The notes under the pieces: model-generated
Database searches by the model: none
What the model was told of the DNA's origin: nothing
The model's input: only the letters and a program-made list of their open reading frames with translations
Made by a program: the position numbers and the translations under genes
DNA from: Candidatus Eiseniibacteriota bacterium
GTDB taxonomy: Bacteria > Eisenbacteria > RBG-16-71-46
NCBI GenBank assembly: GCA_016223045.1
Contig: JACRPT010000145.1
Coordinates: 12,040-76,039 of the forward strand
Direction: 5' to 3'
Length of the DNA: 64,000 nucleotides
Shown here: piece after piece, positions 18,141 through 49,178 of the stretch
Position numbering within the stretch: position 1 is the first letter of the stretch
How the letters are laid out: each line of letters opens with the position of its first letter

Positions 18141-18342
18141 GGGAACCCCCTGCGCGTGAAGGGAACGGAAGGAGCCGGAAGCGAACGGACTCTAGCCGCG
18201 GCTGCGCGGGGGCGGCAAGCCGGCACCGACGAGTGCGGCTCCGGGGGTCACAGGCGAGCCCGGACGAACCTGCTCCGCGGGGAAGATGCGCGGCGCCCGG
18301 GGCCTCGGCGGGGAGGCCCCGGGCGCTCGCACGCCCGCCGCA

Positions 18343-19467
18343 TCACTCCTGGTCGCCGCCCCCTGCCCCCCGGCTCCACACCTCTCCCGACCACTCGAGG
18401 GAGAGCCCCACCTGGCTCACGCGGTAGCTGCCCGGATCGAACGTGGGCCGCGCGTTCGGGCCCATCGTCGCGGCGTTGTCCTCGTGGCGGAAGAAGCCGC
18501 GCGCCGAGAAGTGCGGGCGGTAGTGCGCGCGCAGCCCCACCTCGACCGCGTTGAGCAGGTCGCTGCGCCCGAAGTGATTCGCGTCGGCGGGCCGGTCGGA
18601 GTCGAAGTGGCGCGTGGCCAGCTGGTAGCCGACATCGCCCGTCAGCCGCCACGCCTTGCCGCGCGTCAGCTCGGCGCGGCCGCGCACGCCGGCGACGAAG
18701 CCGCTGTAGCTCAGGTCCTGGTCGTCGGGCGTGACGCCCGGTACCTCGTCGGCGTCCGCAGCCTTCGCCCGGCTCACGCGGTAGCCGCCCTCCAAGTCCA
18801 CGCTCCCGCGCGCGGGCAGACGGTTGAAGCCCAGGGCCAGCTCCCCCTGGTGCAGGTTCGCATCCCGCTCGACGAAGGCATCATCGTACGCGCGACCCTC
18901 ATAGCGGTAGCCGACCCCGATGTCGGTGTTCTTCGTGAGCCGCTGGTCCCAGCTCACGGTGCCGATCTGGAGCCGGAACGTGGCGCGGCGGTAGCGCGTC
19001 TGGCCCGGCACCAGCGGCAGGTCCTCGTCGAAGAGCTGGCGCAGGTAGTACCGGGGCAGGGTGAACCAGCCCAGCGAGAGCCGGCGGCCGCGCGCCCACG
19101 ATTCGCGCCACAGGACGCTCACCGAGCGGTAGTCCGCGGTGGCATTGCGGTCGTGGAAATCGCCTTCGCCCCTGAGCCGCAGCGCGTGCCTCCGGCCGTG
19201 CCCGGCGTCGCTCTCCCAGGTGAGCGCGAGCGAGGGGTTGAGGACCAGGTCGCCCTTGCTCGCGATCGAGAAGTGCGTGGGCTTGCTGCCCGAGTCGAAG
19301 ACGGTGAGCAGCGTATCCGAGTACTGGAGGATGTTGTCGTCGTAGGTGGTCGAGAGCCCGGTCGTGAGGCTGAGGCTCTGCCCGGCGGCCCGGGCGGGCG
19401 CGGCGAGGGCGGGCGATAGGGCGAGCACCATCAGCAGAACGGGCACGGCACGTCCTCGAGTCGTCAT
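18343..19467 (-). CDS. Putative outer-membrane beta-barrel protein; last gene of the pgs-like operon.
   Basis: Signal peptide MTTRGRAVPVLLMVLALSPALAAPARA. Alternating amphipathic beta-strand patterns with abundant Y/W/R/D/G are typical of OM barrels. Its start ATG overlaps the upstream stop as ATGA. Confidence 0.5.
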   Translation of the reverse strand: MTTRGRAVPVLLMVLALSPALAAPARAAGQSLSLTTGLSTTYDDNILQYSDTLLTVFDSGSKPTHFSIASKGDLVLNPSLALTWESDAGHGRRHALRLRGEGDFHDRNATADYRSVSVLWRESWARGRRLSLGWFTLPRYYLRQLFDEDLPLVPGQTRYRRATFRLQIGTVSWDQRLTKNTDIGVGYRYEGRAYDDAFVERDANLHQGELALGFNRLPARGSVDLEGGYRVSRAKAADADEVPGVTPDDQDLSYSGFVAGVRGRAELTRGKAWRLTGDVGYQLATRHFDSDRPADANHFGRSDLLNAVEVGLRAHYRPHFSARGFFRHEDNAATMGPNARPTFDPGSYRVSQVGLSLEWSGEVWSRGAGGGDQE

Positions 19468-20360
19468 TCCTCGTTCCCCACGGAAGGCTCCGGGATGCGC
19501 GCGTGGATCTCGGCCGAGCCGCGCACGGGCTGCACCAGCTCGATCGTGATCTCGTGCGTGCCCTCCCCCACGGGGAGGGTCGCGCGGTCGAACTTCGACG
19601 GCACCCGGTCCTTCAGGTTGGTGTAGGTGGCGGTTGTCGCCTTGGTGGTCCTGAACTCCACTTCGCTCAACACCTGCTTGCGCTCGCTGAAGCGCAGCCG
19701 ATAGCTCTGGGTGCCCCGCATCGTGGCGTCGTAGTCGAGCCGCGCGAGCACCTCGAGCGTGGTCGGCCCCACGACGCGCACGCGCACGGGTTGCCCCGGC
19801 ATCACGCTGTAGTAGGGGATCGTCTTCTCGCCCTCCGCCACCAGCACGCTGCGCGCGGCGGCCACCGGTGTGAGCGTCACCATCGGCGGTTCGCCCCCGC
19901 GCGGCGCCGATCGCTGGACGCGCACCAGTGCCGCGGCCGCGCCGCCCAGGGTGAGCGTGAGCCGATGGTTCCCGGCGGGCACGTCGAAGGTCATCTTGCG
20001 GCTCTTACCGAGCGCCGCGCTCCCGCCCTGGAGTCGCACCTCCGCCGCGGCCGAGCTCTCGGTCGCGAGCTCCTCGAGCAGGCGCCCACCCTCGAGCGCG
20101 CGCACGGCGTAGGCGGCGATCCGTGCCGAGCCGGGTGGCAGCTCCACCCGCGTCGTGAGGCGCACCTGCGCCGGGCCTTCCACCGTCACGGTGAGCGGGG
20201 CCTGCGGCGTCAGCCGGAAGTAGGCGCGCGGCTTCTCGCGCACCAGCACCTGCACCGGCGTGGCGCCGGGCAGCTTCTCGAACGCGGTCCAGCGCGCGGC
20301 CGCGGCCTCGCCGGCGGCGAGCGCGAGCGCCGCGAACGCGAGCGCGAGTCTCATCATCAT
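19464..20360 (-). CDS. Secreted/periplasmic hypothetical protein (299 aa) coupled into the pgs-like operon.
   Basis: Signal peptide MMMRLALAFAALALAAGEAAAA, beta-rich, no known motif recognised. ATGA overlaps at both ends. Confidence 0.45.
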   Translation of the reverse strand: MMMRLALAFAALALAAGEAAAARWTAFEKLPGATPVQVLVREKPRAYFRLTPQAPLTVTVEGPAQVRLTTRVELPPGSARIAAYAVRALEGGRLLEELATESSAAAEVRLQGGSAALGKSRKMTFDVPAGNHRLTLTLGGAAAALVRVQRSAPRGGEPPMVTLTPVAAARSVLVAEGEKTIPYYSVMPGQPVRVRVVGPTTLEVLARLDYDATMRGTQSYRLRFSERKQVLSEVEFRTTKATTATYTNLKDRVPSKFDRATLPVGEGTHEITIELVQPVRGSAEIHARIPEPSVGNEE

Positions 20361-21478
20361 GGGGGTGGGATCCTTTCGGGATGCGGGTGGCCCAGGACCT
20401 GCTGCCGCACGTCGCGGCGCAGCACGTAGATGTTCACGAGCAGGACGAGCAGCGCTGCGGCGGCGACGATCCAGAGGTTGTAGCGGTACTGGATGAAGAG
20501 CAGCCCGCTGCCGGGGCGGACCGGATTCGCCGCCCGGTCCGTGATCTCGAACATGCGCGCCAGCTTCTCGACCTGGAGCAGGTGGATGACCGGGATGCGG
20601 CGCTCGCCCATCACGTTGATGACGCCGCGGTTCGGGTAGTTGCGCGTGGTGAGCCGCATCGTGAGTCCGGCCGGGATGAGCCGGCCGTTCTGGGCGCCTC
20701 CGAGGCTCGCCACGCCGCCGCCCACGTTGATGTAGAGCCTGATGGCCCGGCCGCGCGCCGCCGCGATCGAGTCGTAGATCGCGACGCGCTGCCGGACCGC
20801 CTCGAGCACGCTGGGCGGGTCGAGCAGCTTGACGCCGTTGCGCTCGATGGCGTCGTCGAGCAGCACGCGGCCGGCCGGCGAGAGGCCGCGGCCCACGTCG
20901 CCGCCGCCGCCGAGCGAAGCGGCCGCCGAGCGGAACGGCCACAGCCCCCGCTGCACCGCGATCGCCTCCATGTCGAGCCATGTCAGGTTCGGGTCGGTGG
21001 CGCCGAACATCGAGGCGCCGGCCGAGGTGATGATGATCGGCTCCGCGCCGACCGCCCGGCAGGACGCGAGCGCCGCGAGGTTGAGGCCCGGCAGCGACCC
21101 GGTCATGCCCACGGCGACCAGGTCGCCCCGGCGCACGCCGGCTTGCAGCATCATCTGCGTCACCGCCGCGGCGAAGTTCGGGTGCGCGGCCAGGCTCTTC
21201 GCGGCCTGCGAGCCGCGATCGGTCGTGATCAACGTGAATTGCGGCCCGATGACGCCGGTGCGCTCCGGATCGTTGCGGGCGTCCACCGTGATGCCGCGCT
21301 CCCGCTTGACCTCCGCGATCGCCCGCTCGGCCCGCTGCATGAGGCGCACCGCCTCGAGCTTCTTCCTGAACGCCTCGGCATGGACCGGGGTCAGCGAGCG
21401 CTCGGAGATCGCGTAGACCGCGAGCGACAGCGCCGCGAGGCCGACCAGCGCGGGCGTGGAGGCGCGCGCGAGGCTCAT
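20357..21478 (-). CDS. Membrane-anchored 'poly-gamma-glutamate system' accessory protein, occupying the position where CapA would normally be.
   Basis: N-terminal TM helix and a C-terminal TM helix (NLWIVAAAALLVLLVNIYVL). No CapA metallophosphatase motifs. Start set at the ATG at 21478, which overlaps the pgsC stop as ATGA; the track start at 21550 would overlap pgsC by 76 nt. Confidence 0.5.
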   Translation of the reverse strand: MSLARASTPALVGLAALSLAVYAISERSLTPVHAEAFRKKLEAVRLMQRAERAIAEVKRERGITVDARNDPERTGVIGPQFTLITTDRGSQAAKSLAAHPNFAAAVTQMMLQAGVRRGDLVAVGMTGSLPGLNLAALASCRAVGAEPIIITSAGASMFGATDPNLTWLDMEAIAVQRGLWPFRSAAASLGGGGDVGRGLSPAGRVLLDDAIERNGVKLLDPPSVLEAVRQRVAIYDSIAAARGRAIRLYINVGGGVASLGGAQNGRLIPAGLTMRLTTRNYPNRGVINVMGERRIPVIHLLQVEKLARMFEITDRAANPVRPGSGLLFIQYRYNLWIVAAAALLVLLVNIYVLRRDVRQQVLGHPHPERIPPP

Positions 21479-21924
21479 CGGATCAGGGCCCCGCCGTGGA
21501 GCAGCATGAGCAGGAGCCGCACCAGCACCGCGGTCGTGACCATGACGCACAGCGTCTGGATCACGCCCTGGCGCTCCATCCAGTTCGCGATCAGGCCGGG
21601 GATGACGAAGCCGATGGTGCGCAGGTCCACCGGCACGTTCTGGAACTTGAGCACCATGAGGTCGCGCGAGAGCGCGCCGAACACGAACCCGATCAGGACC
21701 GCCACCACGATGCGCCGCCGCCCGTAGATGAGCGTGTAGCGCGACAGCAGCTGGAGCGCGCCCCAGGTGAGCAGCGCGATCCCCACGGTGCCGACGATGC
21801 GCAGCGGCTCGTGGATCATGAGCGCGAGGTAGCCCGGCACCACCATGCCGCCCGCCGCGAGGCCGAGGGTCTCGGAGAAGATGAGGCTGACGACCAGCCC
21901 GAGCCCGATCGCCTGCTCAACCAC
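21475..21924 (-). CDS. pgsC: Poly-gamma-glutamate synthase component PgsC/CapC.
   Basis: 149 aa, 4-5 TM. Matches B. subtilis PgsC in VVPGYL..., ...IYGRRR..., ...GFVIPGLIANWMERQG. Confidence 0.8.
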   Translation of the reverse strand: MVEQAIGLGLVVSLIFSETLGLAAGGMVVPGYLALMIHEPLRIVGTVGIALLTWGALQLLSRYTLIYGRRRIVVAVLIGFVFGALSRDLMVLKFQNVPVDLRTIGFVIPGLIANWMERQGVIQTLCVMVTTAVLVRLLLMLLHGGALIR

Positions 21925-23293
21925 GGCGCACCGCCCGGTTGCTGAAGTGGAGCGTGATCTCCTCCCCGAGTCCGACGATGTTGCCGATGCCGACGATCAC
22001 GGCTTCGTGCCGCACCAGCGCGAGCACGTGCTCGTAGACCGCCTCGGCACCGAGCCCGCCGAGGTTGCTGAGCCGCTCGCGGTCGAGACCTCCGTTCAGC
22101 GCCTGGAACGCCACCAGGTCCGTGCCCTCGCCGGAGAGCACCACGTGGTCGGCCGAGAGCCGTTTCGCCACCAGCTCGGCGATCTGCCCGGAGCGCTGCA
22201 GCCGGTCCGGGCGGCAGTTGGCGAGGATCATGCGCTGCACGCCCGGCCGCCGCTGCTCGAGCCCCAGGCGCTGCCAGATCAGCAGCGTCGAATCCGGGTC
22301 GTTTGCGGCGAAGGCGTTCACGAACTCCACCGTCTTGTCCCCCGACCGCACGGTGTAGCGGCGCAGCACCCCCGGGTCGGGCGCGGCGGCGTGCATGCCG
22401 GCGAGCGCGGCGGCGCGCGGCACCCCGAGGTGCGCGCACACCGCGAGCGCGAGCGCCACGTTCTCGGCGTGTTCGAAGTAGGAGAAGCCGGCCAGCTCCT
22501 CCACCGTCACGCCGTCGGGCGGGACCACGTGCACCGCGCTCCCGCGCCCGCGCGCCACCGCCTCGAGGATCCCTGCGCGTTCGCGCTCGGCGGTGAAGAG
22601 GTGCCCGCCCACCGGGCAGGTCTGGGCGAGGGCGTGCGCGACGTCGTCCACCGTGGGCCCCATGACGTCGAGATGGTCGGCGCGGCAGTTCGTGATCACG
22701 CCCACCGTGCTCTTGATGAGCCGCAGCTCGACGAGCGGCTGCAGCTCGGGCGTCACCGCCATGCACTCGATGACCAGCGCCGCGGCGCCGTCCTCGACCG
22801 CGCGCCGCACGATGCGGGTCTGCTCGATGATGTTGGGGCTGCCGACGCGGTAGACGTCCACCTCCAGGCCGTCGGGGCGGATGATGCGCGCCATGGTGCC
22901 GGTGGTCTTGGCGAAGGCGCGCACGCCCCCGGAGCGCAGGCCCGCCGCGATCAGCCGGGTGACCGAGGACTTGCCGCGTGTGCCGTTCACGTGCACGCGC
23001 ACCGGCAGGCGCGCGAGGTTGCGCTCGTGCGAGCGCATCTCCCACACGCCGTACGCTGCCAGCCCCGCGGTCAGGATGCCGGGAACGAGCGCGATGGTGT
23101 CACCTCCAGAACGATGTCCCCCGGACCGGGCGCCTGCGTTCGGCGCGCCCGGCCCCGGTGGACGCAGGAAGGCCCGGCGGTCGTCGCGCGTCGCGTGGAC
23201 GGCGTGGCCGACCCGGGCCCATGCCCGTCTATCGGCACGGGGCGCGCCGCACTGGAGAACGACCGGAGCACGACGCTGGAGCGGGCTGTGCAC
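21917..23293 (-). CDS. pgsB: Poly-gamma-glutamate synthetase PgsB/CapB (Mur-ligase-like amide ligase).
   Basis: LARLPVRVHVNGTRGKSSVTRLIAAGL (P-loop), ...IECMAV..., DHLDVMGPT and NAFAANDPDSTL are collinear with B. subtilis PgsB. An N-terminal TM helix (IALVPGILTAGLAAYGVW) precedes the P-loop. The real start is probably downstream of the GTG at 23293; no unambiguous in-frame start lies next to the TM helix. Confidence 0.85.
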   Translation of the reverse strand: MHSPLQRRAPVVLQCGAPRADRRAWARVGHAVHATRDDRRAFLRPPGPGAPNAGARSGGHRSGGDTIALVPGILTAGLAAYGVWEMRSHERNLARLPVRVHVNGTRGKSSVTRLIAAGLRSGGVRAFAKTTGTMARIIRPDGLEVDVYRVGSPNIIEQTRIVRRAVEDGAAALVIECMAVTPELQPLVELRLIKSTVGVITNCRADHLDVMGPTVDDVAHALAQTCPVGGHLFTAERERAGILEAVARGRGSAVHVVPPDGVTVEELAGFSYFEHAENVALALAVCAHLGVPRAAALAGMHAAAPDPGVLRRYTVRSGDKTVEFVNAFAANDPDSTLLIWQRLGLEQRRPGVQRMILANCRPDRLQRSGQIAELVAKRLSADHVVLSGEGTDLVAFQALNGGLDRERLSNLGGLGAEAVYEHVLALVRHEAVIVGIGNIVGLGEEITLHFSNRAVRRG

Positions 23294-23625: not shown

Positions 23626-24471
23626 CTACTTCCCCATGCGGCGCTTCCGCCCGACGAACAGGCTCGTCGCCAGCCCGGCACCGGTGAAGGCTCCCTTGAG
23701 CTCGCTGGCGAACAGGTCGCCCGCCTCGGCGGCGAGCCTCGCCGCAGACTCGCCTTCGATCCCCACGCCCTTGAAGTACGCGGCCGCCGTTTCGCGGTCG
23801 CGCGCCGTGCGGGTCTCCGAGCGCTGCAGGTAGAGGTGCGAGACCAGGTGCACGATCCGGCCCTCGCCTTCGTCCCACTCCACCACCACGGCGTCGGCGC
23901 CGAACCGCCGGCCGACCTCGGCGCTCTTCACCAGCACGCGCACGCGGTCCCGGTCGAGCACCTCGCACGGGTAGCTCGCGCCCTCCATCCACCACAGCGG
24001 GTCGCGCCCGTCCTCGCGGAACCCCGCGAGCAGCGGGTGGTCCCCCACCGGCTCCACCCTGACCACGCAGTCCGGGATGCTGCCTCCCGTGTACTTCACG
24101 CGGCCCGGGAAGGCGCGCTCGAGCAGGTGCTTCAACGCCCAGTCCGTGGTGCCGAGGTGCCCGCCCTCGCGCACCCACTGGACGAGCCTGCGCAGCGCAG
24201 TCGCCGGGAGCCGCCCCGGGCAATTCACCCAGACCACCTGCGCGCGCGCCCAGTCGATGCCGGCGAGGTCCGCCGGCGCGACCTGGACGAACGGCACGCC
24301 GATGGCGCGCAGCACGCGCCCGATGTGGTCGTAGTCCCCGAGCACCTCGACGATCTCGCCGGGCTCGGCCTGCGCGAGCAGCTCCGCGTCCTCGGGATTC
24401 GACCTCTGCAGCACGTCGCGGAAGGCCTTCGCCGCGACGTCGAACGCCCGCTCCATCCTCTCCTTCTCCAT
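23626..24471 (-). CDS. Conserved hypothetical protein (281 aa); second gene of the cassette divergent to the XRE/S24 repressor.
   Basis: Strong RBS AAAGGAG before the ATG at 24471. VVWVNCPGRLPATALRRLVQWVREGGHLGTTDWAL loosely resembles a non-catalytic class-I glutamine-amidotransferase-like (ThuA/DJ-1-type) fold. No confident assignment. Confidence 0.5.
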   Translation of the reverse strand: MEKERMERAFDVAAKAFRDVLQRSNPEDAELLAQAEPGEIVEVLGDYDHIGRVLRAIGVPFVQVAPADLAGIDWARAQVVWVNCPGRLPATALRRLVQWVREGGHLGTTDWALKHLLERAFPGRVKYTGGSIPDCVVRVEPVGDHPLLAGFREDGRDPLWWMEGASYPCEVLDRDRVRVLVKSAEVGRRFGADAVVVEWDEGEGRIVHLVSHLYLQRSETRTARDRETAAAYFKGVGIEGESAARLAAEAGDLFASELKGAFTGAGLATSLFVGRKRRMGK

Positions 24472-24521
24472 GCTCTCTCTCCTTTCGTCTCGTCTTCCGC
24501 GTCCCCCGCGGGGACGCGCCT

Positions 24522-25490
24522 CTACTCTCCGAACACCGCCAGGTGCGCCAGCGCGTCGGCGGCCCACAGGCCGGCGCCGGCGAAGCCGCGGCCCGTGAGC
24601 GCGAGCTGCGCGCCGAGTCCGCGCGACGGGCGCGCCTGCACGAGCGCGGTCGCGATCCTCGCGATCCAGTCGGTCCCCGCCCGCTCCGGCGCGCCCGCAC
24701 GCGCTCCAGGCTGGAGCGCGAGCGCCTCGACCGCCAGCAGGTAGGACGGCATCACGACCGGGCGCAGCGCGGCCCAGGTGTCCGGGTGACCGAACACCTC
24801 GAGGCCCAGCAATCGGCCGTGCGCGAGCGCCAGGATCCCGACTTCGCCCGGCACCTGGTCGAAGGCGCGGGCGCGGTCCTCCGCCTCGCGCCGGTGCGCG
24901 GCCGCGCCGGCCATGTAGTCCCCGGTCGCCGAGCGGACCCCATGCGCCGAGAGAGCGCGCGCGACGTCCGCCCACAGGCGGCCCTGGTCCACGTGGCCTT
25001 TCGCGGCGGCCTCGGCGACCGTGTGCCGTCGAAGGGCGGGCTCGACCGGAAGATCGCCGACGGCGAACCTGGACGAGGCTCCGCCCCAGCGCCCCTGCTG
25101 CACGCAGCCGACCTTCACCGGCACCGTCTGCACCGGTCCGATGAGCGTGGTCTCCACGACCACCCGGTTCTGCTTCGCGCCGACCAGGCTCGAGCCCTCC
25201 GGCACCAGCACCGGGGCCGGTCCCCGGTTGCACACGACGACCTCGTTGACGACCCCGCCGCCCTGCTCGACCACTTCCACATGGCCGGCCTTGACTGCCT
25301 GGTGGAGGAGCAGGTACGAAGGTCCGGGTGCGCCCTCGAGCCGGAGCGGGAAGATCTCCAGTGGGCCGGCGACCCGGGAAGCCTCCGGCCTGAGGCGGCC
25401 GAGCCAGAAGGCGACCCGGGCTTCGCTCCAGGGGTGTTCGGCCCCAGGGCTGCCGGCCCATGGTTGGAAAGCAGCGGATATCGCGCTCAC
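24522..25490 (-). CDS. Conserved hypothetical protein (323 aa); first gene of the cassette divergent to the XRE/S24 repressor.
   Basis: RBS AAAGGAGG 5 nt before a GTG start at 25490. Conserved-looking motif ...LVPEGSSLVGAKQNRVVVETTLIGPVQTVPVKVGCVQQGRW... . I half-recall a family with a GxKQNR...VPVxCVExGRW signature, but the identity could not be established from sequence alone. Confidence 0.5.
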   Translation of the reverse strand: MSAISAAFQPWAGSPGAEHPWSEARVAFWLGRLRPEASRVAGPLEIFPLRLEGAPGPSYLLLHQAVKAGHVEVVEQGGGVVNEVVVCNRGPAPVLVPEGSSLVGAKQNRVVVETTLIGPVQTVPVKVGCVQQGRWGGASSRFAVGDLPVEPALRRHTVAEAAAKGHVDQGRLWADVARALSAHGVRSATGDYMAGAAAHRREAEDRARAFDQVPGEVGILALAHGRLLGLEVFGHPDTWAALRPVVMPSYLLAVEALALQPGARAGAPERAGTDWIARIATALVQARPSRGLGAQLALTGRGFAGAGLWAADALAHLAVFGE

Positions 25491-25493
25491 GGG

Positions 25494-25668
25494 AGCCTCC
25501 TTTGATGACCAGTGCTGGTCGCATTTGTCGCGCAGCGCCACCTTGCCATGGATTTCGGCTCCTAGCCTGCATCACCGGGCATATATACCGCTTGTGGTCG
25601 CAATTGGTCAAGGGATATATTTAGAGCGCCATGAGCTATGAATTGGTCGCCAGACTGGCGAGGCGCTG
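25494..25668. promoter_or_regulatory. Divergent promoter/operator region between the hypothetical cassette and the XRE/S24 repressor.
   Basis: Locally AT-enriched. TATATA-type -10-like elements at about 25580 and 25614. Three copies of TGGTCGC(A/C) at 25516, 25595 and 25644. A CAATTG palindrome and a 13-bp palindrome CGCCAGACTGGCG at 25648-25660 abut the repressor start. Confidence 0.4.
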
Positions 25669-40688: not shown

Positions 40689-40799
40689 CAGTAGATGATG
40701 TGGATAACCGTTGCTTGCAGATTCCACACTCCATCGCACCCGCGGGGCGCACGGCCGCGATTGAACGGAAGTTCTCGCAGCCCTGGACCCTGTGGATAA
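40689..40799. promoter_or_regulatory. Two perfect DnaA boxes (TGTGGATAA = TTATCCACA) at 40689-40697 and 40791-40799, upstream of dnaA; oriC/dnaA-promoter region.
   Basis: Exact 9-mers read in a locally low-GC ~500-bp intergenic region. The second box abuts the dnaA start. Confidence 0.55.
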
Positions 40800-40830
40800 G
40801 TTCGCGACCTTTTCAGCAAGGACCGTTGAA

Positions 40831-42216
40831 ATGGCCGTCCAGCCCCTGCAGACCGAGGAGCAGCTCCAAGTCTGGGCGCAGGTCTTGTTGTCGGTGAGGG
40901 ATAAGCTCGGGAGCCACCAGGCTTTCGAAACGTGGTTCAAACCCATCGTCCCGCGCGCGATCAGCCCCCAGTACGTCGAGCTGGAAGTACCCAACGCCTT
41001 CTTCGTGGACTGGATCCACGAACACCATCTCTCCACCCTGCGCCAATGCCTGGCGGATACGCTCGGCGGCAGCCCGGAGATCCGCTTCTCGGCCCTGGAG
41101 CCGGCGCCGTCCGCGCCGGTCATCCCGCCCGAGCCGCACTCTGGTGGCGCAGCGCCCGCTCCCGCGCGCCCGGGCCGCGTCTGGCTCGACAGCCAGCTCA
41201 ATCCGCGGCTCACGTTCGAGAGCTTCGTGGTCGGGAGCAGCAACCGTTTCACGCACGCGGCCTGCCGCGGCGTGGCGGCGAACCCGGGCCACGCGTACAA
41301 CCCGTTGTTCATCTTTGGCGGCTCCGGTCTCGGCAAGACGCACCTGCTCCACGCGGTCGGCCACGCGGTGAAGCAGGCGCGCCCCGAAGCGCGTGTGTAC
41401 TACGTGCCGGCGGAGCGCTTCACCAACGAGATGATCTACTCGATCCAGCACGCCCAGACACTGGCGTTCCGGAACAAGTACCGGAGCGTGGACGTGCTCC
41501 TGATCGACGACATCCAGTTCCTGGCCGGGAAGGAGAGCACCCAGGAGGAGTTCTTCTACACGTTCAACGCGCTGCGCGACGCGCACAAGCAGATCGTGGT
41601 CACCGCCGACAAGCCCCCGAAGGACATCCGGATGCTCGAGGAGCGGCTGACCTCGCGCTTCAACCAGGGCCTCGTCACCGACATCAAGCAGCCCGACATC
41701 GAGACCCGCATCGCCATCCTGCGCAACCGCTGCGAGCAGGAGGGCGACGGCCTGCGGCTGCCGGAGGACGTGCTGCTCCTGATCGCCGACCGGATCCGCA
41801 CGAACATCCGTGACCTCGAGGGCTGCCTCGTGCGGCTCATGGCAGTGGCGTCGCTCACGCACCAGGAGATCACCCTCGACCTCGCGGACGAGGTGCTCCA
41901 GAACTACGTGAACCCCGAACCCGATCAGCTGACGCCCGAGCGCATCTTGGCGGCCGTCGCGGAGCGGTTCGGCGTGCGGAGCGAGGCGATGTGCGGACAG
42001 CGCCGCACGCGCACGGTCGCGCTCCCGCGCCAGGTGGCGATGTACCTCACCCGTCAGCTCACCGAGCTCTCTCTCGTCGAGATCGGCCGGATGTTCGGCG
42101 ACCGCGACCACACGACGGTGATGTACGCCTGCGACAAGATAGCCGCGCTGATCGCGTCGGATAGCGATTTCGCCGACCGGATCAACGGTCTGATCTCCAC
42201 GCTCGCCTCGGGATGA
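40831..42216 (+). CDS. dnaA: Chromosomal replication initiator protein DnaA.
   Basis: AAA+ Walker A GGSGLGKTHLLHAVG, Walker B LLIDDIQFL, sensor motifs, C-terminal DNA-binding domain ...MYLTRQLTELSLVEIGRMFG.RDHTTVMYACDKI. Start set at the ATG at 40831; the track start lies inside the DnaA box. Confidence 0.9.
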   Translation: MAVQPLQTEEQLQVWAQVLLSVRDKLGSHQAFETWFKPIVPRAISPQYVELEVPNAFFVDWIHEHHLSTLRQCLADTLGGSPEIRFSALEPAPSAPVIPPEPHSGGAAPAPARPGRVWLDSQLNPRLTFESFVVGSSNRFTHAACRGVAANPGHAYNPLFIFGGSGLGKTHLLHAVGHAVKQARPEARVYYVPAERFTNEMIYSIQHAQTLAFRNKYRSVDVLLIDDIQFLAGKESTQEEFFYTFNALRDAHKQIVVTADKPPKDIRMLEERLTSRFNQGLVTDIKQPDIETRIAILRNRCEQEGDGLRLPEDVLLLIADRIRTNIRDLEGCLVRLMAVASLTHQEITLDLADEVLQNYVNPEPDQLTPERILAAVAERFGVRSEAMCGQRRTRTVALPRQVAMYLTRQLTELSLVEIGRMFGDRDHTTVMYACDKIAALIASDSDFADRINGLISTLASG

Positions 42217-42387
42217 GATGTGGAGAACCTGTGGGGGGATGGGGAGATCCGCCAGGGCTAAGTGTTGGATTCGTAAGGGGGTGTAGAAGCCACCGTGTTC
42301 CCAACACCCCTGGGCGGCGTCATATCAGATTGCAGCGCAGCACGTTACAGCGCTGGTTGTGGCGCAGTCCACACACCCCACCACCCC

Positions 42388-42456
42388 TTCTACTACTGTC
42401 TTCTTTCTTATTGTCAGACAATGGTTTAGAAGCCGCATTAAGCCATCGAAATCACT
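42388..42456. promoter_or_regulatory. AT-rich stretch in the dnaA-dnaN spacer; candidate DNA-unwinding element of a bipartite oriC.
   Basis: cttctactactgtcttctttcttattgtcagacaatggtttagaagccgcattaagccatcgaaatc is markedly AT-rich for a 70% GC genome. One near-consensus DnaA box (TGTGGAGAA) lies at about 42220. Confidence 0.3.
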
Positions 42457-42579
42457 TGCGGGCAGGGCACGCCCTGCCTATGATGCAGCCGTTTCTGTTG
42501 GAGGCCTCCGGGTAACCCTGTCCCGCCCGCCGGAAGGCGTGTCTGGACATGAGCTTCCCCCCAGTCAGGGAGTCACCGT

Positions 42580-43731
42580 ATGGAACTCACCATCCAGCAG
42601 GGCGACCTGGCGTTCGCCGTGGGTCAGGCCCTGGGATCGGTTTCGAGCAAGAGCCCCCTTCCACTGCTCGGTTGTCTGCTCATGGAGGCCGAGAAGAGCG
42701 GGCTGCGCGTCACCGGGACGGACCTCGATCTGACGACCTCGGTGGCGGTCCCGTGTGTGGTGTCGAGCCCCGGTAAGGCTGCGGTCTCGGCGCGGCACTT
42801 CAACGAGGTCGTGCGGAAGATGCCGAAGGGCACGCTCGCCGTCGCCGTGCGCGGGGGGCAGTGCGAGGTGTCGTACGGGGACGGCAAGGGATGGTCGCGA
42901 TTCCCCGTGCAGGACCCCGGCGAGTTCCCGCGCGTGCCGGAGTTCAAGGGCGACGCGAAGCTCACGCTGGAGGGCGTGGCGCTGGCGCGCCTTGCCGCCC
43001 GCACGAGCTACGCGACCTCGACCGAGGACACACGTCCGATGTTGAACGGCGTCCTGGTGCAGGCGGACGACAAGTGCGTCACGTTCGTCGCCACCGACGG
43101 GCACCGTCTCGCGAAGGCGGCGCGTCGCGGCGCCTTCGGTGGACTCGGCGCCCAGGGCGTGATCGTCCCGGGCCGCGCGCTCAACGCGGTGAGCCGCACC
43201 GCGGAGGCGGCGACCAGCCCGGTCGAGTTCGAGGTCGCGTCGGGCAAGAACCAGGCAGGCTTCAGTGCGCAGGTGGGGGAGTACCGCGTCCAGATCATGA
43301 CCCGGCTGCAGGAGGGGGTGTATCCCAACTACGAGCAGGTCATTCCGAAGGACAACCCGAAGCTGCTCACCGCGCGGCGCGGCGACCTCATGGACGCCAT
43401 CGATCTCGTGGCCTCGCATGCCGACAACGTCACACGCCAGGTGCGGTTCTCGCTGAGGAAGGGCCGCCTCGGCGTGTCATCCACGACGCCCGAGCTCGGT
43501 TCCGGCGAGCAACAGATGGATGCCCAATACGACGGCGAGGACATGGAGATCGGCTACAACGCGAGCTACCTGCTCGAGATCCTGCGCAGCATCCCGACCG
43601 AGCAGGTGCAGTTCCACCTGAAGACCGCGCTCTCGGCCGGGGTCATCGAGCCGGTTGGCGCGCTGCCCCAGGGCGAGGAGGATCTGCTCTGCCTGATCAT
43701 GCCGCTCCGCCTCCCGGACGCGGTGGGATAG
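42580..43731 (+). CDS. dnaN: DNA polymerase III beta sliding clamp DnaN.
   Basis: Three-domain clamp. ...RPMLNGVLVQADDKCVTFVATDGHRLA... and C-terminal ...LLCLIMPLRL. Confidence 0.9.
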   Translation: MELTIQQGDLAFAVGQALGSVSSKSPLPLLGCLLMEAEKSGLRVTGTDLDLTTSVAVPCVVSSPGKAAVSARHFNEVVRKMPKGTLAVAVRGGQCEVSYGDGKGWSRFPVQDPGEFPRVPEFKGDAKLTLEGVALARLAARTSYATSTEDTRPMLNGVLVQADDKCVTFVATDGHRLAKAARRGAFGGLGAQGVIVPGRALNAVSRTAEAATSPVEFEVASGKNQAGFSAQVGEYRVQIMTRLQEGVYPNYEQVIPKDNPKLLTARRGDLMDAIDLVASHADNVTRQVRFSLRKGRLGVSSTTPELGSGEQQMDAQYDGEDMEIGYNASYLLEILRSIPTEQVQFHLKTALSAGVIEPVGALPQGEEDLLCLIMPLRLPDAVG

Positions 43732-43733
43732 CC

Positions 43734-45984
<2,251 letters not shown>

Positions 45985-45985
<1 letters not shown>

Positions 45986-46575
45986 TGGCCGCCCCGCGCA
46001 CACCCGCGAAGGCGGCGTGGGCGGTTGCGCCGCTCGCGCTCGTCCTGGCCCTGGCGGTGGCCGCTCCCGCGTGTGCCGGGGCGCGCCCCGAGCTGGCCGG
46101 CGCGGCGGGGGCCACGCTGGGCGTGCTCGGCCCGCCCGACGGGGGCGGCGCGTCGCTCTCGGCCGCCGCGCTGTGGCCGGTGGGCTACGGACTGCGCTTC
46201 GGGCTCAGCCTGTTCGCCGAGGACATGGGTTCCGAGACGGTCGAGCTCACGGACATCCACGACGGCTCGGACCTCGGGAGCGTGGCGGGGCTGCACCGCA
46301 TGGCGCTCGGCGCGGCCTGGAGGCTCGACGGCGAGTTCGCGCCGGCGCTGGGGTGGATCCCGTTCGGCAGCGCGACCTGGGGCATCTGGCGCGTCTCGGA
46401 CGACGTGCAGGGGCGCGAACTTGGCGCGATCGGCTCGACGGGGTTCAGCCTGGGGGGCGGTCTGCGGCACGCGGTCGGCCGCTTCCAGCTCGGTGCCTCG
46501 GTGCGGTACCACCGGCTGTTCAACGAGCGCGTGGGCCGCTTCGTGGCCGCGGGCGTGGACTGGAGCTGGCGTTGA
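45985..46575 (+). CDS. Small putative outer-membrane beta-barrel/secreted protein (196 aa) wedged between gyrB and gyrA.
   Basis: ATG overlaps the gyrB stop (TGATG). Signal peptide MAAPRTPAKAAWAVAPLALVLALAVAAPACAGA. Amphipathic strands and an aromatic C-terminus ...GVDWSWR. Confidence 0.45.
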
Positions 46576-46631
46576 GACGCACTACACGAACCGCACGGGC
46601 CTCTCACCCCGGCGGAGGCAGGGACTGACCG

Positions 46632-49178
46632 ATGGCACTCAACGATCGCTCAAAGGTCATCGACAAGAACATCGAAGAGGAGATGAAGACCAGCTACATC
46701 GACTACTCGATGTCGGTCATCGTCTCGCGCGCGCTCCCGGACGTGCGCGACGGCCTCAAGCCGTCGCAGCGGCGCATCCTGGTCGCGATGAACGACCTGA
46801 ATCTCGCGCCCGGCCGCGGCTACCGGAAGTGCGCCAAGATCGCCGGCGACACCTCGGGCAACTACCATCCGCACGGCGAGGGTGTGGTCTATCCGACGCT
46901 CGTGCGTCTCGCCCAGGACTGGGTGATGCGTTATCCGCTCGTGGACGGGCAGGGGAACTTCGGCTCGATCGACGGCGACGCCCCGGCGGCGATGCGGTAC
47001 ACCGAGGCGCGACTCACGCACCTCGCGGTCGAGATGCTCGCCGACCTCGAGAAGAACACGGTGGACCTGCGGCCGAACTACGACGAGACGCGCGACGAGC
47101 CGGTCGTGCTCCCGGGGGTGGTGCCGAACCTGCTGGTGAACGGCTGTTCGGGCATCGCGGTGGGCATGGCGACCGAGGTGCCGCCGCACCATCTCGGAGA
47201 GGTGTGCGATGCGATCGTCCACGTCATCGACCACCCGGACGCGACGTCCGCCCAGCTCGCCCGGATCGTGAAGGGTCCCGACTTCCCGACCGGCGGGATC
47301 ATCTACGGCTACCAGGGCATCCGCGACTGCTACGAGACGGGCCGCGGTCTCATCAAGGTGCGCGCGCGCGTCCAGGTGGAAGAGGGCCGCGGCGGCCGCA
47401 TGAGCCTCGTGGCCACGCAGATTCCCTTCCAGGTCAACAAGGCCTCGCTGCTCGAGAAGATCGCCGACCTGGTGCGCCAGGGGAGGGTCACCGGCATCAG
47501 CGACCTGCGCGACGAGTCCGACCGCGACGGGATGCGTATCGTCATCGAGCTCAAGAAGGACGCGAACCCGAAGGTCGTGCTCAACCAGCTGTTCGTGCAC
47601 TCGCAGCTGCAGGCGACGTTCGGAGCGAACATGCTGGCGCTCGTCGACAACCGCCCGCAGCTCCTCGACCTCCGCGGCCTCATCGAGCAGTACGTCCGTC
47701 ACCGCCAGGAAGTGGTGCGCCGGCGCACCGAGTTCGACCTCGGCGAGGCCGAGAAGCGCGCGCACATCCTCGAAGGCCTCAAGATCGCGCTCGACAACCT
47801 CGACGCGGTCATCGAGCTGATCCGCAAGTCGAAGGACGTCGAGACCGCGCGCCAGGGTCTCATGAGCCGGTTCAAGCTCAGCGAGATCCAGGCGAACGCG
47901 ATCCTCGAGATGCGGCTGTCGCGTCTGACCGCGCTGGAGCGCTCGAAGGTCGAGCAGGAGTACCTCGAGGTCATCCAGCTGATCGAGCGGCTGCGCAGCA
48001 TCCTCGCGAGCCCGCAGAAGATGCTGGCGATCATCCAGGACGAGGTGCGCGGACTCAAGAAGCAGTACGGTGACGAGCGCCGCACCGAGATCGTGAGCGA
48101 AGAAGGCGAGATCGGCTACGAGGACACCATCGAGCAGAAGGACATGGTCATCACGATCTCGCACGCCGGGTACATCAAGCGGCAGGAGATCAACGCCTAC
48201 CGCTCGCAGCGTCGCGGGGGCAAGGGTGTCATCGGCGCCCGCACCAAGGAAGAGGACTACATCGAGCACCTGTTCGTGGCGAACACGCACGCCTACCTGC
48301 TCATCCTCACGAACCGCGGGCGCTGCTACTGGCTCAAGGTGCACGAGATCGACCAGGCCGGGCGCATGGCGCGGGGGCGGCCGCTGGTGAACCACCTGGA
48401 GGGGCTGTCGCGCGACGAGAGCGTGCAGGCGGTCGTGGCCGTGAAGGAGTTCGACGACCAGCACTACCTGGTGTGCGCGACGAAGAAGGGCCTCATCAAG
48501 AAGACCGTGCTCTCGGCCTACAGCCACCCGCGCAAGGCCGGGATCAACGCCATCCTGCTGGAGGAGGGCGACGGGCTCATCGAGACCATCATCACCGACG
48601 GCACGCAGGACATGATCCTCGCCAAGAGGAAGGGCCTCGCGATCCGCTTCCACGAGAGCGAGGTGCGCGCGACGGGCCGCACGTCGTACGGCGTGAAGGC
48701 GGTCACGCTCGACGATGCCGAGGACGAGGTCGTGAGCATGGTGGGAGTCAGGCGCCAGGCGACCCTGCTCGCCGTGACCGAGCACGGCTATGGCAAGCGC
48801 AGTGAGATCTCGGAGTACCGGGTGTCCCACCGCGGCGGCAAGGGCATCATCACCATCAAGACGACGGAGCGGAACGGCAACGTGGTCGCGGTGAAGGAGG
48901 TCGTGGACGGGGACGAGCTCATGATCATCACCCGCTCCGGCCAGCTCATCCGCATGCCGGTGAAGGGAATCTCGGTGATGGGGCGCAACACGCAGGGCGT
49001 GCGCCTCGTGAACCTCGCCATGGCCGAGGGCGAGCTGCTGCCCGACACGGTCGCCGGCGTGACCCGCGTGGTGAGCGAGGGCGAGGGCGGCAACGGCGAT
49101 GCCGGGACCAACGGCGCGGCCGCGCCCGGGGCCGAAGCCGACGCGGAGCCCGGGGGCGGGGAGCCGGGATCGGAGTGA
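46632..49178 (+). CDS. gyrA: DNA gyrase subunit A.
   Basis: Active-site region ...[10 protein letters not shown]... (catalytic Tyr), GyrA-box/C-terminal beta-pinwheel repeats. 848 aa. Confidence 0.95.

Follow-up and report, generated by a model that had tools for sequence, protein, structure and literature searches.

A 64,000-nucleotide (64-kb) stretch of DNA from a Candidatus Eiseniibacteriota bacterium, hereafter the window, carries on its minus strand, from 23095 to 18343, five genes with zero intergenic gaps, in the order pgsB, pgsC, gene 3, gene 4, gene 5. The first two encode a poly-gamma-glutamate (gamma-PGA) synthetase, gene 3 a member of the family TIGR04332, gene 4 a secreted tandem beta-sandwich protein, and gene 5 an outer-membrane beta-barrel. 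This order and adjacency recur in about 140 independent loci. We favor, at somewhat better than an even chance, the reading that the five genes are a single operon for both the synthesis of poly-gamma-glutamate and its passage across the two-membrane envelope. The original prediction for this region, made from the sequence alone, was of a complete and largely undescribed synthesis-plus-export module. Its last two genes are indeed undescribed, its first three are of a kind already known, and export is a step that we infer.

Operon organization and the synthetase genes

Every junction in the operon is an overlap of 4 or 8 nucleotides (nt). Direct reading of the sequence gives ATGA stop/start overlaps at 21478-21475, 20360-20357 and 19467-19464, exactly the positions originally predicted, and the pgsB stop overlaps the pgsC start by 8 nt (GTGgTTGA at 21924-21917). 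A GC-rich hairpin follows the barrel gene (coordinates of all features are in Table 1). The RNA of 18250-18350 folds at -63.9 kcal/mol (z -2.97), better than any of 200 shuffled versions. Though it has no T-run, the hairpin is likely the terminator at the operon end. A consensus sigma-70 promoter was not seen near the operon, nor any consensus promoter in the non-coding DNA ahead of pgsB.

The identity of the synthetase is clear. PgsB scores 420.9 bits against TIGR04012 (cutoff 222.7), the match spanning residues 73-447 of a 458-residue open reading frame (ORF), and it also matches the Mur-ligase middle domain PF08245 (E 4.7e-10). PgsC scores 126.8 bits against TIGR04011 (cutoff 96.45) and 123.9 bits against PF14102 (cutoff 27, E 6e-36). 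The two proteins, originally described as recognizable, therefore both exceed equivalog cutoffs, and Pfam agrees. A sequence search of PDB with PgsB returned nothing significant.

The start of pgsB is unusual. The maximal ORF begins with a GTG at 23293, which adds 66 codons to the N terminus. G+C content at third (GC3) and second (GC2) codon positions is 0.74 and 0.70 in these extra codons, whereas the gene body has 0.95 and 0.48. Because of this contrast, because the TIGR04012 match begins only at residue 73, and because called PgsB homologues are 392 residues long, we take the extension to be an ORF artefact. The ATC at 23095, with GGAGG 7 nt upstream, lines up with the start codon of pgsB relatives, and this non-canonical codon is probably the start. 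In 24 loci from close relatives, the homologous codon is ATG, GTG or TTG in 20; in the other four (L004, L012, L014 and L021) it is ATC or ATA, always preceded by GGAGGT or GAGGT, and within 12 codons of it no canonical start was found. Of the long N-terminal extension or ambiguous start first proposed, the extension thus falls away and the unusual start stays, recurring in relatives. Pairing a weak start codon with a strong binding site might serve to restrain or regulate expression of the synthetase.

A TIGR04332 protein in the CapA position

Gene 3 occupies the position held by CapA/PgsA in Bacillus. Its product scores 283.5 bits against TIGR04332 (cutoff 100) over profile positions 6-300 of 307. 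The family is named "poly-gamma-glutamate system protein", the name that NCBI and JGI give to identical and related proteins, and it is the family that the original prediction had half remembered. It has 1189 cluster representatives in a 50%-identity library. A sequence search found no PDB relative of gene 3, even with a 108-member profile. TIGR04332 is a named but uncharacterized family with very little literature. In the literature found, the name is used only for the "CapA" of Francisella tularensis (PMC5362203); searches found no paper under the family identifier TIGR04332 and none of relevance under the word PgsF.

The predicted absence of a CapA gene holds by sequence, as no match to PGA_cap, the Pfam family of CapA, was found in the five operon proteins (E<=0.1) or in seven flanking proteins (E<=0.001). 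A divergent CapA encoded by gene 3 was rejected at the same level, given the missing PGA_cap match and the strong TIGR04332 match, so the earlier reading of this gene stands. Its description as a bitopic protein does not, since the product has two hydrophobic segments, one at each end of a domain of about 300 residues. Basic residues after the second hydrophobic segment, together with the layout of fused relatives, suggest that this middle domain faces the periplasm. In the fused relative P0318, a third hydrophobic segment lies ahead of the gene 4 part.

Gene 4 encodes a secreted tandem beta-sandwich

The gene 4 product matches no Pfam or NCBIfam family, and a PDB sequence search with it returned nothing significant. 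Its AlphaFold model (predicted local distance difference test, pLDDT, 87.7) consists of a signal peptide and then two beta-sandwich domains in tandem, which resemble carbohydrate-binding modules. The fold is similar to polymer-binding modules and to the periplasmic domains of BcsB. The two halves align to each other (hhalign 99.8%, E 3.6e-29), which points to an ancient duplication, and the pattern Y..GP..R..Y..GxH is kept in each half across 73 diverse homologues. Originally the product was described as a 299-residue periplasmic beta-rich protein. The model and the signal peptide agree with a beta-rich, secreted protein; its length is 298 residues, and the periplasm would be its site of action.

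Gene 5 encodes a 14-stranded barrel

Structure prediction gives a confident, closed, single-chain barrel for gene 5, and 14 is the strand count for what had been a putative outer-membrane barrel. Its closest structural matches are CymA and OmpG. It belongs to no Pfam or NCBIfam family, Pfam giving only a sub-threshold generic barrel match. The candidate roles first suggested for it were secretin or porin. A porin-type monomeric barrel agrees with the model, whereas a secretin is a multimeric channel and the single-chain barrel found here has no secretin family match. NCBI annotates 367 residues, as against 374 from the ATG at 19467, which is likely the true start.

Sixty diverse barrel homologues have in common the motifs YDDNILxYS, a DD pair, PxxYxR...D, E200 and DxxHxGRxD. 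On a strand map, these conserved motifs fall in extracellular loops or the upper barrel. A Lys-rich tract (5-9 Lys per 12 residues) lies right behind the signal peptide in 32 of 47 non-Eisenbacteria barrels and in 0 of 13 Eisenbacteria-type barrels, the one in the window included.

Co-conservation of the five genes

The locus was surveyed in two directions. A forward scan used a gene 3 alignment against one genome per species, and 80 loci were examined among more than 585 species matched. A reverse scan of metagenomes used a barrel alignment as the query, and again 80 loci were examined. The alignments chosen for the two scans were the narrower A4 and A6, A3 and A5 being too diverse. ORFs of each locus were searched by profile, and the denominators given here are loci with enough sequence to judge.

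In the forward scan, pgsB and pgsC lie upstream of gene 3 in 67/67 loci, gene 4 lies immediately behind gene 3 in 74/74, and the barrel lies behind gene 4 in 60/67. In the reverse scan, gene 4 is just upstream of the barrel in 58/59 loci (55 by script and 3 more by row listing, in which the barrel is cut at a contig end and gene 4 is upstream), gene 3 is upstream in 44/45, and pgsBC in 34/35. The sole exception, L143, has its barrel ahead of pgsB, on the same strand and in the same cluster. A gene matching the gamma-PGA hydrolase profile described below stands behind gene 4 in that locus. Among loci with room to judge, no barrel homologue was found away from pgs genes. The original prediction depended on the co-conservation of the gene 4 and barrel genes with pgsBC, which is seen here from both directions.

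About a quarter of the forward loci are Eisenbacteria-like, with gene 3 identities of 66-74%. The others come from Bacteroidales, Lentimicrobiaceae, Ignavibacteria, Melioribacteraceae, Zixibacteria and similar groups, with gene 3 identities of 40-47%; barrel identity falls to about 17-27% across loci. The packing is kept as well. The gap between genes 3 and 4 is at most 100 nt in 130/133 loci, and that between gene 4 and the barrel in 132/138. Surroundings outside the five genes vary between lineages, and the conserved part is the five-gene core.

Fused proteins link the same partners. Genes 3 and 4 form a single polypeptide in four 50%-cluster representatives: P0318, with 47% identity to the gene 4 product of the window (E 1e-70); P0331, with an hhalign probability of 98.4%; and P0321 and P0337, of like architecture. 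P0445 is a fusion of PgsC and gene 3. The 734-residue P0437 joins a TIGR04332 domain to a barrel homologue (hhalign 100%) with no gene 4 between. Its junction, at residues ~360-395, contains a lipobox-like VAAGC, so we take P0437 only as evidence of gene adjacency. A frameshift or an error in gene calling may have joined two neighboring genes, or P0437 may come from a lineage with a lipoprotein barrel and no gene 4.

Loci with variations

Seven forward loci lack the barrel (L009, L019, L022, L025, L026, L054 and L055). In L009 and L019 no substitute is seen, and the gene 4 match of L019 is partial; we read these as rearranged loci. Four others, from one subclade (L022, L026, L054 and L055), have at the barrel position an 815-840-residue outer-membrane protein of the TonB-dependent receptor type (CarboxypepD_reg, Plug and OMP_b-brl_3 domains). 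Replacement of the barrel by another outer-membrane protein argues for an outer-membrane role at position 5. In the same four loci, Pfam identifies a gene for a poly-gamma-glutamate hydrolase (PF05908) beside the cluster. L025 has the PF05908 hydrolase only, with neither barrel nor substitute. Two loci that do have the barrel, L049 and L018, contain an ORF matching a profile built from those hydrolases; with that profile, no homologue was found among the ORFs of the window. The hydrolase genes adjoining some clusters argue that the polymer is gamma-PGA.

Other genes accompany the cluster in particular lineages. Linked to the cluster in 52 loci is the gene for a protein of about 1250 residues that belongs to the Peptidase_C25 (gingipain) family and carries a type IX secretion sorting domain. 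This gene lies on different sides in different lineages, upstream of pgsB in L082 and downstream of the barrel in L076 and L080, and is absent from the window. Its product could act as an enzyme at the cell surface, processing the polymer or anchoring it. Assignment of the large upstream gene of Bacteroidota loci as the PorU sortase was rejected, since Peptidase_C25 with a type A sorting domain marks the product as cargo. Bacteroidales-type clusters are often trailed by genes for an LVIVD-repeat lipoprotein (39 loci), an HGSNAT-like membrane acyltransferase (28) and an unnamed 360-residue lipoprotein (27). These may be lineage-specific additions or plain synteny.

Proposed function and alternatives

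The model we propose has four steps. PgsB, an ATP-dependent amide ligase with an inner-membrane anchor, would polymerize glutamate at that membrane together with PgsC. The TIGR04332 protein would substitute for CapA/PgsA as their partner on the outer face of the inner membrane. The secreted tandem beta-sandwich protein would bind the nascent anionic chain in the periplasm and link it to the outer membrane, and the barrel would pass the chain across that membrane or hold it at the surface. What the data show directly are the identities of the genes, the folds of the proteins, the packing of the operon and its co-conservation; the nature of the polymer in this organism, a periplasmic site for the two middle proteins, contacts among the parts and outward transport are inferred. 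For the narrower proposal, that genes 3 to 5 are a conduit across the envelope, dedicated to an anionic poly-amino acid and working with PgsBC, we put the chances at about even. The four-step model draws support from the equivalog-level synthetase matches, the overlapping junctions and the hairpin, the co-conservation in both scans, the fusions, the displacement at position 5, and the likeness of gene 4 to polymer-binding modules and BcsB domains. Features of the barrel are consistent with the model too. Its lumen-facing residues are polar and Arg-rich, and a rough strand alternation places 21 Arg/Lys and 3 His there, as against 17 Asp/Glu. The poly-Lys tail of many homologues would be suggestive beside the pathway of a poly-anion.

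Several observations weigh against this model. The lumen charge is an estimate from strand alternation and not from model coordinates. The conserved residues of the barrel are as often acidic or aromatic (D, E, Y, N) as basic, and a simple anion channel predicts otherwise. Part of the synteny signal comes from related genomes. The nearest structural matches, CymA and OmpG, are uptake channels, and the barrel substitute is of a receptor type that usually imports and stands beside a polymer hydrolase. Finally, the capBCA genes of Francisella are required for virulence with no shown role in a capsule (PMC4688374).

There are two other ways in which a barrel and a beta-sandwich protein could serve such a synthetase. 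First, the barrel could admit gamma-glutamyl oligomers or glutamate from outside, and the beta-sandwich protein could bind them in the periplasm or hand them on, so as to feed the polymer or turn it over. The likeness to CymA and OmpG fits this explanation, as do the four loci in which the receptor-like substitute adjoins a PF05908 hydrolase. We nevertheless consider it unlikely. Translational coupling ties genes 4 and 5 to the synthetase, behind which they stand in about 140 loci. Several lineages have gene 4 fused with the membrane protein of the synthetase side, and a hydrolase gene lies within 10 kb in only 7/83 loci. Proteins of the TonB type can also act in export, as Oar of Myxococcus, which is needed for secretion, illustrates.

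Second, there may be no free polymer, and the genes could place a gamma-glutamyl modification on an envelope component, with the barrel as surface anchor or outer-membrane enzyme and gene 4 as its periplasmic partner. This we judge slightly more doubtful again. The Francisella capBCA genes, of the same first three types, would be in keeping with it, having no demonstrated capsule (PMC4688374, PMC5362203). So would the invariant barrel residues S50, H298, D295/D303, N45, E200 and R301, which by the strand map lie on the extracellular-loop side, as a binding or catalytic site would. The surface-secreted C25-family peptidase gene linked in 52 loci would suit a surface modification too. However, PgsB and PgsC score as polymer-synthase equivalogs, gamma-PGA hydrolase genes stand alongside some loci, and neither an acceptor nor a transferase is evident in the window.

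That genes 4 and 5 are mere neighbors through inherited gene order, with no shared function, is close to refuted: some close relatives do have wider synteny (pst operon, helix-turn-helix gene, RF-1 domain gene, M16 peptidases), but outside the five genes the neighborhood shifts, with the M16 peptidases in only 4 other loci and different genes upstream, and the core persists at 17-27% barrel identity, the barrel family is never away from pgs genes where there is room to judge, and gene 3-gene 4 fusions exist.

Comparison with known systems

The operon shares its head with the PgsBCA(E) and CapBCA(E)D systems of Bacillus. PgsB and PgsC are equivalog-level orthologues in the same order, and a membrane-anchored third protein with an extracytoplasmic domain comes next. 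That third protein is CapA/PgsA (PGA_cap) in Bacillus and the TIGR04332 protein here, and the operon goes on with two more genes, whose products, periplasmic protein and outer-membrane barrel, a single-membrane Bacillus does not need. Neither the processing enzyme CapD nor the small peptide PgsE was identified, in a survey that took in neither short ORFs nor a search for GGT.

Closer in gene content are Francisella tularensis capBCA and the CapB-CapC-PgsF loci of Cloacimonadota, which have the first three gene types in the same order. A preprint on Cloacimonadota calls "CapB, CapC, PgsF" the typical Gram-negative organization (10.1101/2025.11.11.687785). Published descriptions give those loci three genes and no outer-membrane part, whereas two further genes are fixed in the loci sampled here, which come from Bacteroidota, Ignavibacteria, Zixibacteria and Eisenbacteria.

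Synthase-dependent exopolysaccharide systems (BcsA-BcsB-BcsC, PgaABCD, Alg8/44-AlgK-AlgE and PelBC) are parallel in overall architecture only. They use a glycosyltransferase, whereas the enzyme here is an ATP-dependent Mur-ligase-type amide ligase that would make a poly-amino acid. No tetratricopeptide repeat or glycosyltransferase family matched any of the five operon proteins. The operon also lacks a cyclic di-GMP module and sequence homology to those systems, and its barrel has 14 strands, as against 16-18 in exopolysaccharide-system porins. CymA of Klebsiella oxytoca and OmpG of E. coli do share the 14-strand fold, but identity to the barrel is only 6-11%, with no shared sequence family. 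They import oligosaccharides and have no link to polymer synthases, and the loop motifs YDDNILxYS and DxxHxGRxD are specific to the barrel family described here.

Genomic context

The window as a whole has a G+C content of 72%. A Candidatus Eisenbacteria metagenome-assembled genome has proteins on record that are identical to the products of genes 3, 4 and 5. Downstream of the operon, the next gene encodes an M16 peptidase and starts about 200 nt beyond the hairpin region; the M16 pair was ruled out as part of the module, being so rare in the other loci. Just past the operon region on that side are two convergent genes for very large Kelch-repeat proteins. At its C terminus the larger (1743 residues) carries a FlgD_ig domain, which can be aligned to a type IX secretion sorting domain as well, and the smaller (886 residues) matches Kelch repeats only. 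Upstream of pgsB, beyond about 530 nt of non-coding DNA, are genes for a 271-residue familyless protein and an ARPP-1 family protein, the latter found upstream of the cluster elsewhere only in L002 and L003. The lowest G+C of the window (0.66-0.67) is found where dnaA, dnaN, gyrB and gyrA stand consecutively, and an origin of replication probably lies around 40-42.5 kb, some 17 kb from the operon. Searches of the 64 kb found no tRNA and no Rfam family.

Table 1. Positions of the five genes, associated signals and other features, in the window or in the locus named.
Feature	Position	Strand	Description
pgsB	21917..23095	-	poly-gamma-glutamate synthase, ~392 aa; TIGR04012, PF08245; N-terminal membrane anchor, GTRGKS P-loop
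pgsC	21475..21924	-	small polytopic membrane subunit of synthetase, 149 aa; TIGR04011, PF14102
gene 3	20357..21478	-	TIGR04332 "poly-gamma-glutamate system protein", 373 aa; profile match; hydrophobic segment at each end
gene 4	19464..20360	-	secreted protein, 298 aa; two tandem beta-jelly-roll modules; cleavable signal peptide, no lipobox
gene 5	18343..19467	-	outer-membrane protein, 374 aa; 14-stranded beta-barrel, signal peptide
probable pgsB ribosome-binding site and start	23093..23107	-	GGAGG 23107-23103; non-canonical ATC 23095-23093
hairpin	18293..18326	-	14-bp, GC-rich; 17 nt past barrel stop codon
Lys-tract barrel homologues (L023-L083)	e.g. L036 7488-8639; L066 12103-13254		Lys-rich tract behind signal peptide
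barrel-substitute loci	L022 12025-15181; L026 7533-10606; L054 12049-15210; L055 12076-15239		TonB-dependent receptor type protein at barrel position
L025 hydrolase	L025 3258-3914		PF05908
reverse-scan exception	L143 6896-14419		barrel ahead of pgsB
Peptidase_C25 gene	L082 337-4095; L076 14790-18587; L080 6520-10347		type IX secretion sorting domain
Bacteroidales-type trailing genes	L061 13992-15005; L066 14344-15456; L031 16393-17472		
upstream genes	23626-25541	-	271-aa familyless protein and ARPP-1 family protein
Kelch-repeat protein, 1743 aa	7086-12317	+	C-terminal FlgD_ig domain
Kelch-repeat protein, 886 aa	12460-15120	-	Kelch repeats
dnaA, dnaN, gyrB, gyrA	40765-49178	+	consecutive

Significance

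The first three genes of the operon are of a known, poorly understood kind, and the two families downstream are undescribed. Wherever a source names genes 4 and 5, it calls them "hypothetical protein". The PGA model of CapsuleFinder comprises CapABCDE only, and genes 4 and 5 are absent from it (PMC5542703). Gram-negative gamma-PGA loci have been described as three genes (10.1101/2025.11.11.687785; PMC4688374). No publication on the gene 4 or barrel family was found in a partial coverage of the literature, so an earlier description is possible, and none of the literature searched describes the passage of poly-gamma-glutamate across the outer membrane in two-membrane bacteria, or its attachment there.

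The operon thus provides the first concrete candidates for the outer-membrane handling of poly-gamma-glutamate in such bacteria, in the form of two unannotated protein families, with hundreds of members each, that are locked to synthetase genes across several phyla-level lineages. If genes 3 to 5 do form a conduit, it would be the first known synthase-coupled secretion pathway for a polymer that is not a polysaccharide, and its distribution would be wide, taking in Bacteroidota, Ignavibacteria, Zixibacteria and Eisenbacteria. The lineages that carry the operon are common in soil, sediment and anaerobic digesters. For annotators, the five genes are a signature that flags likely polyglutamate producers among uncultured bacteria, with relevance to biofilm and floc formation, metal binding, and the engineering of gamma-PGA secretion in Gram-negative hosts.

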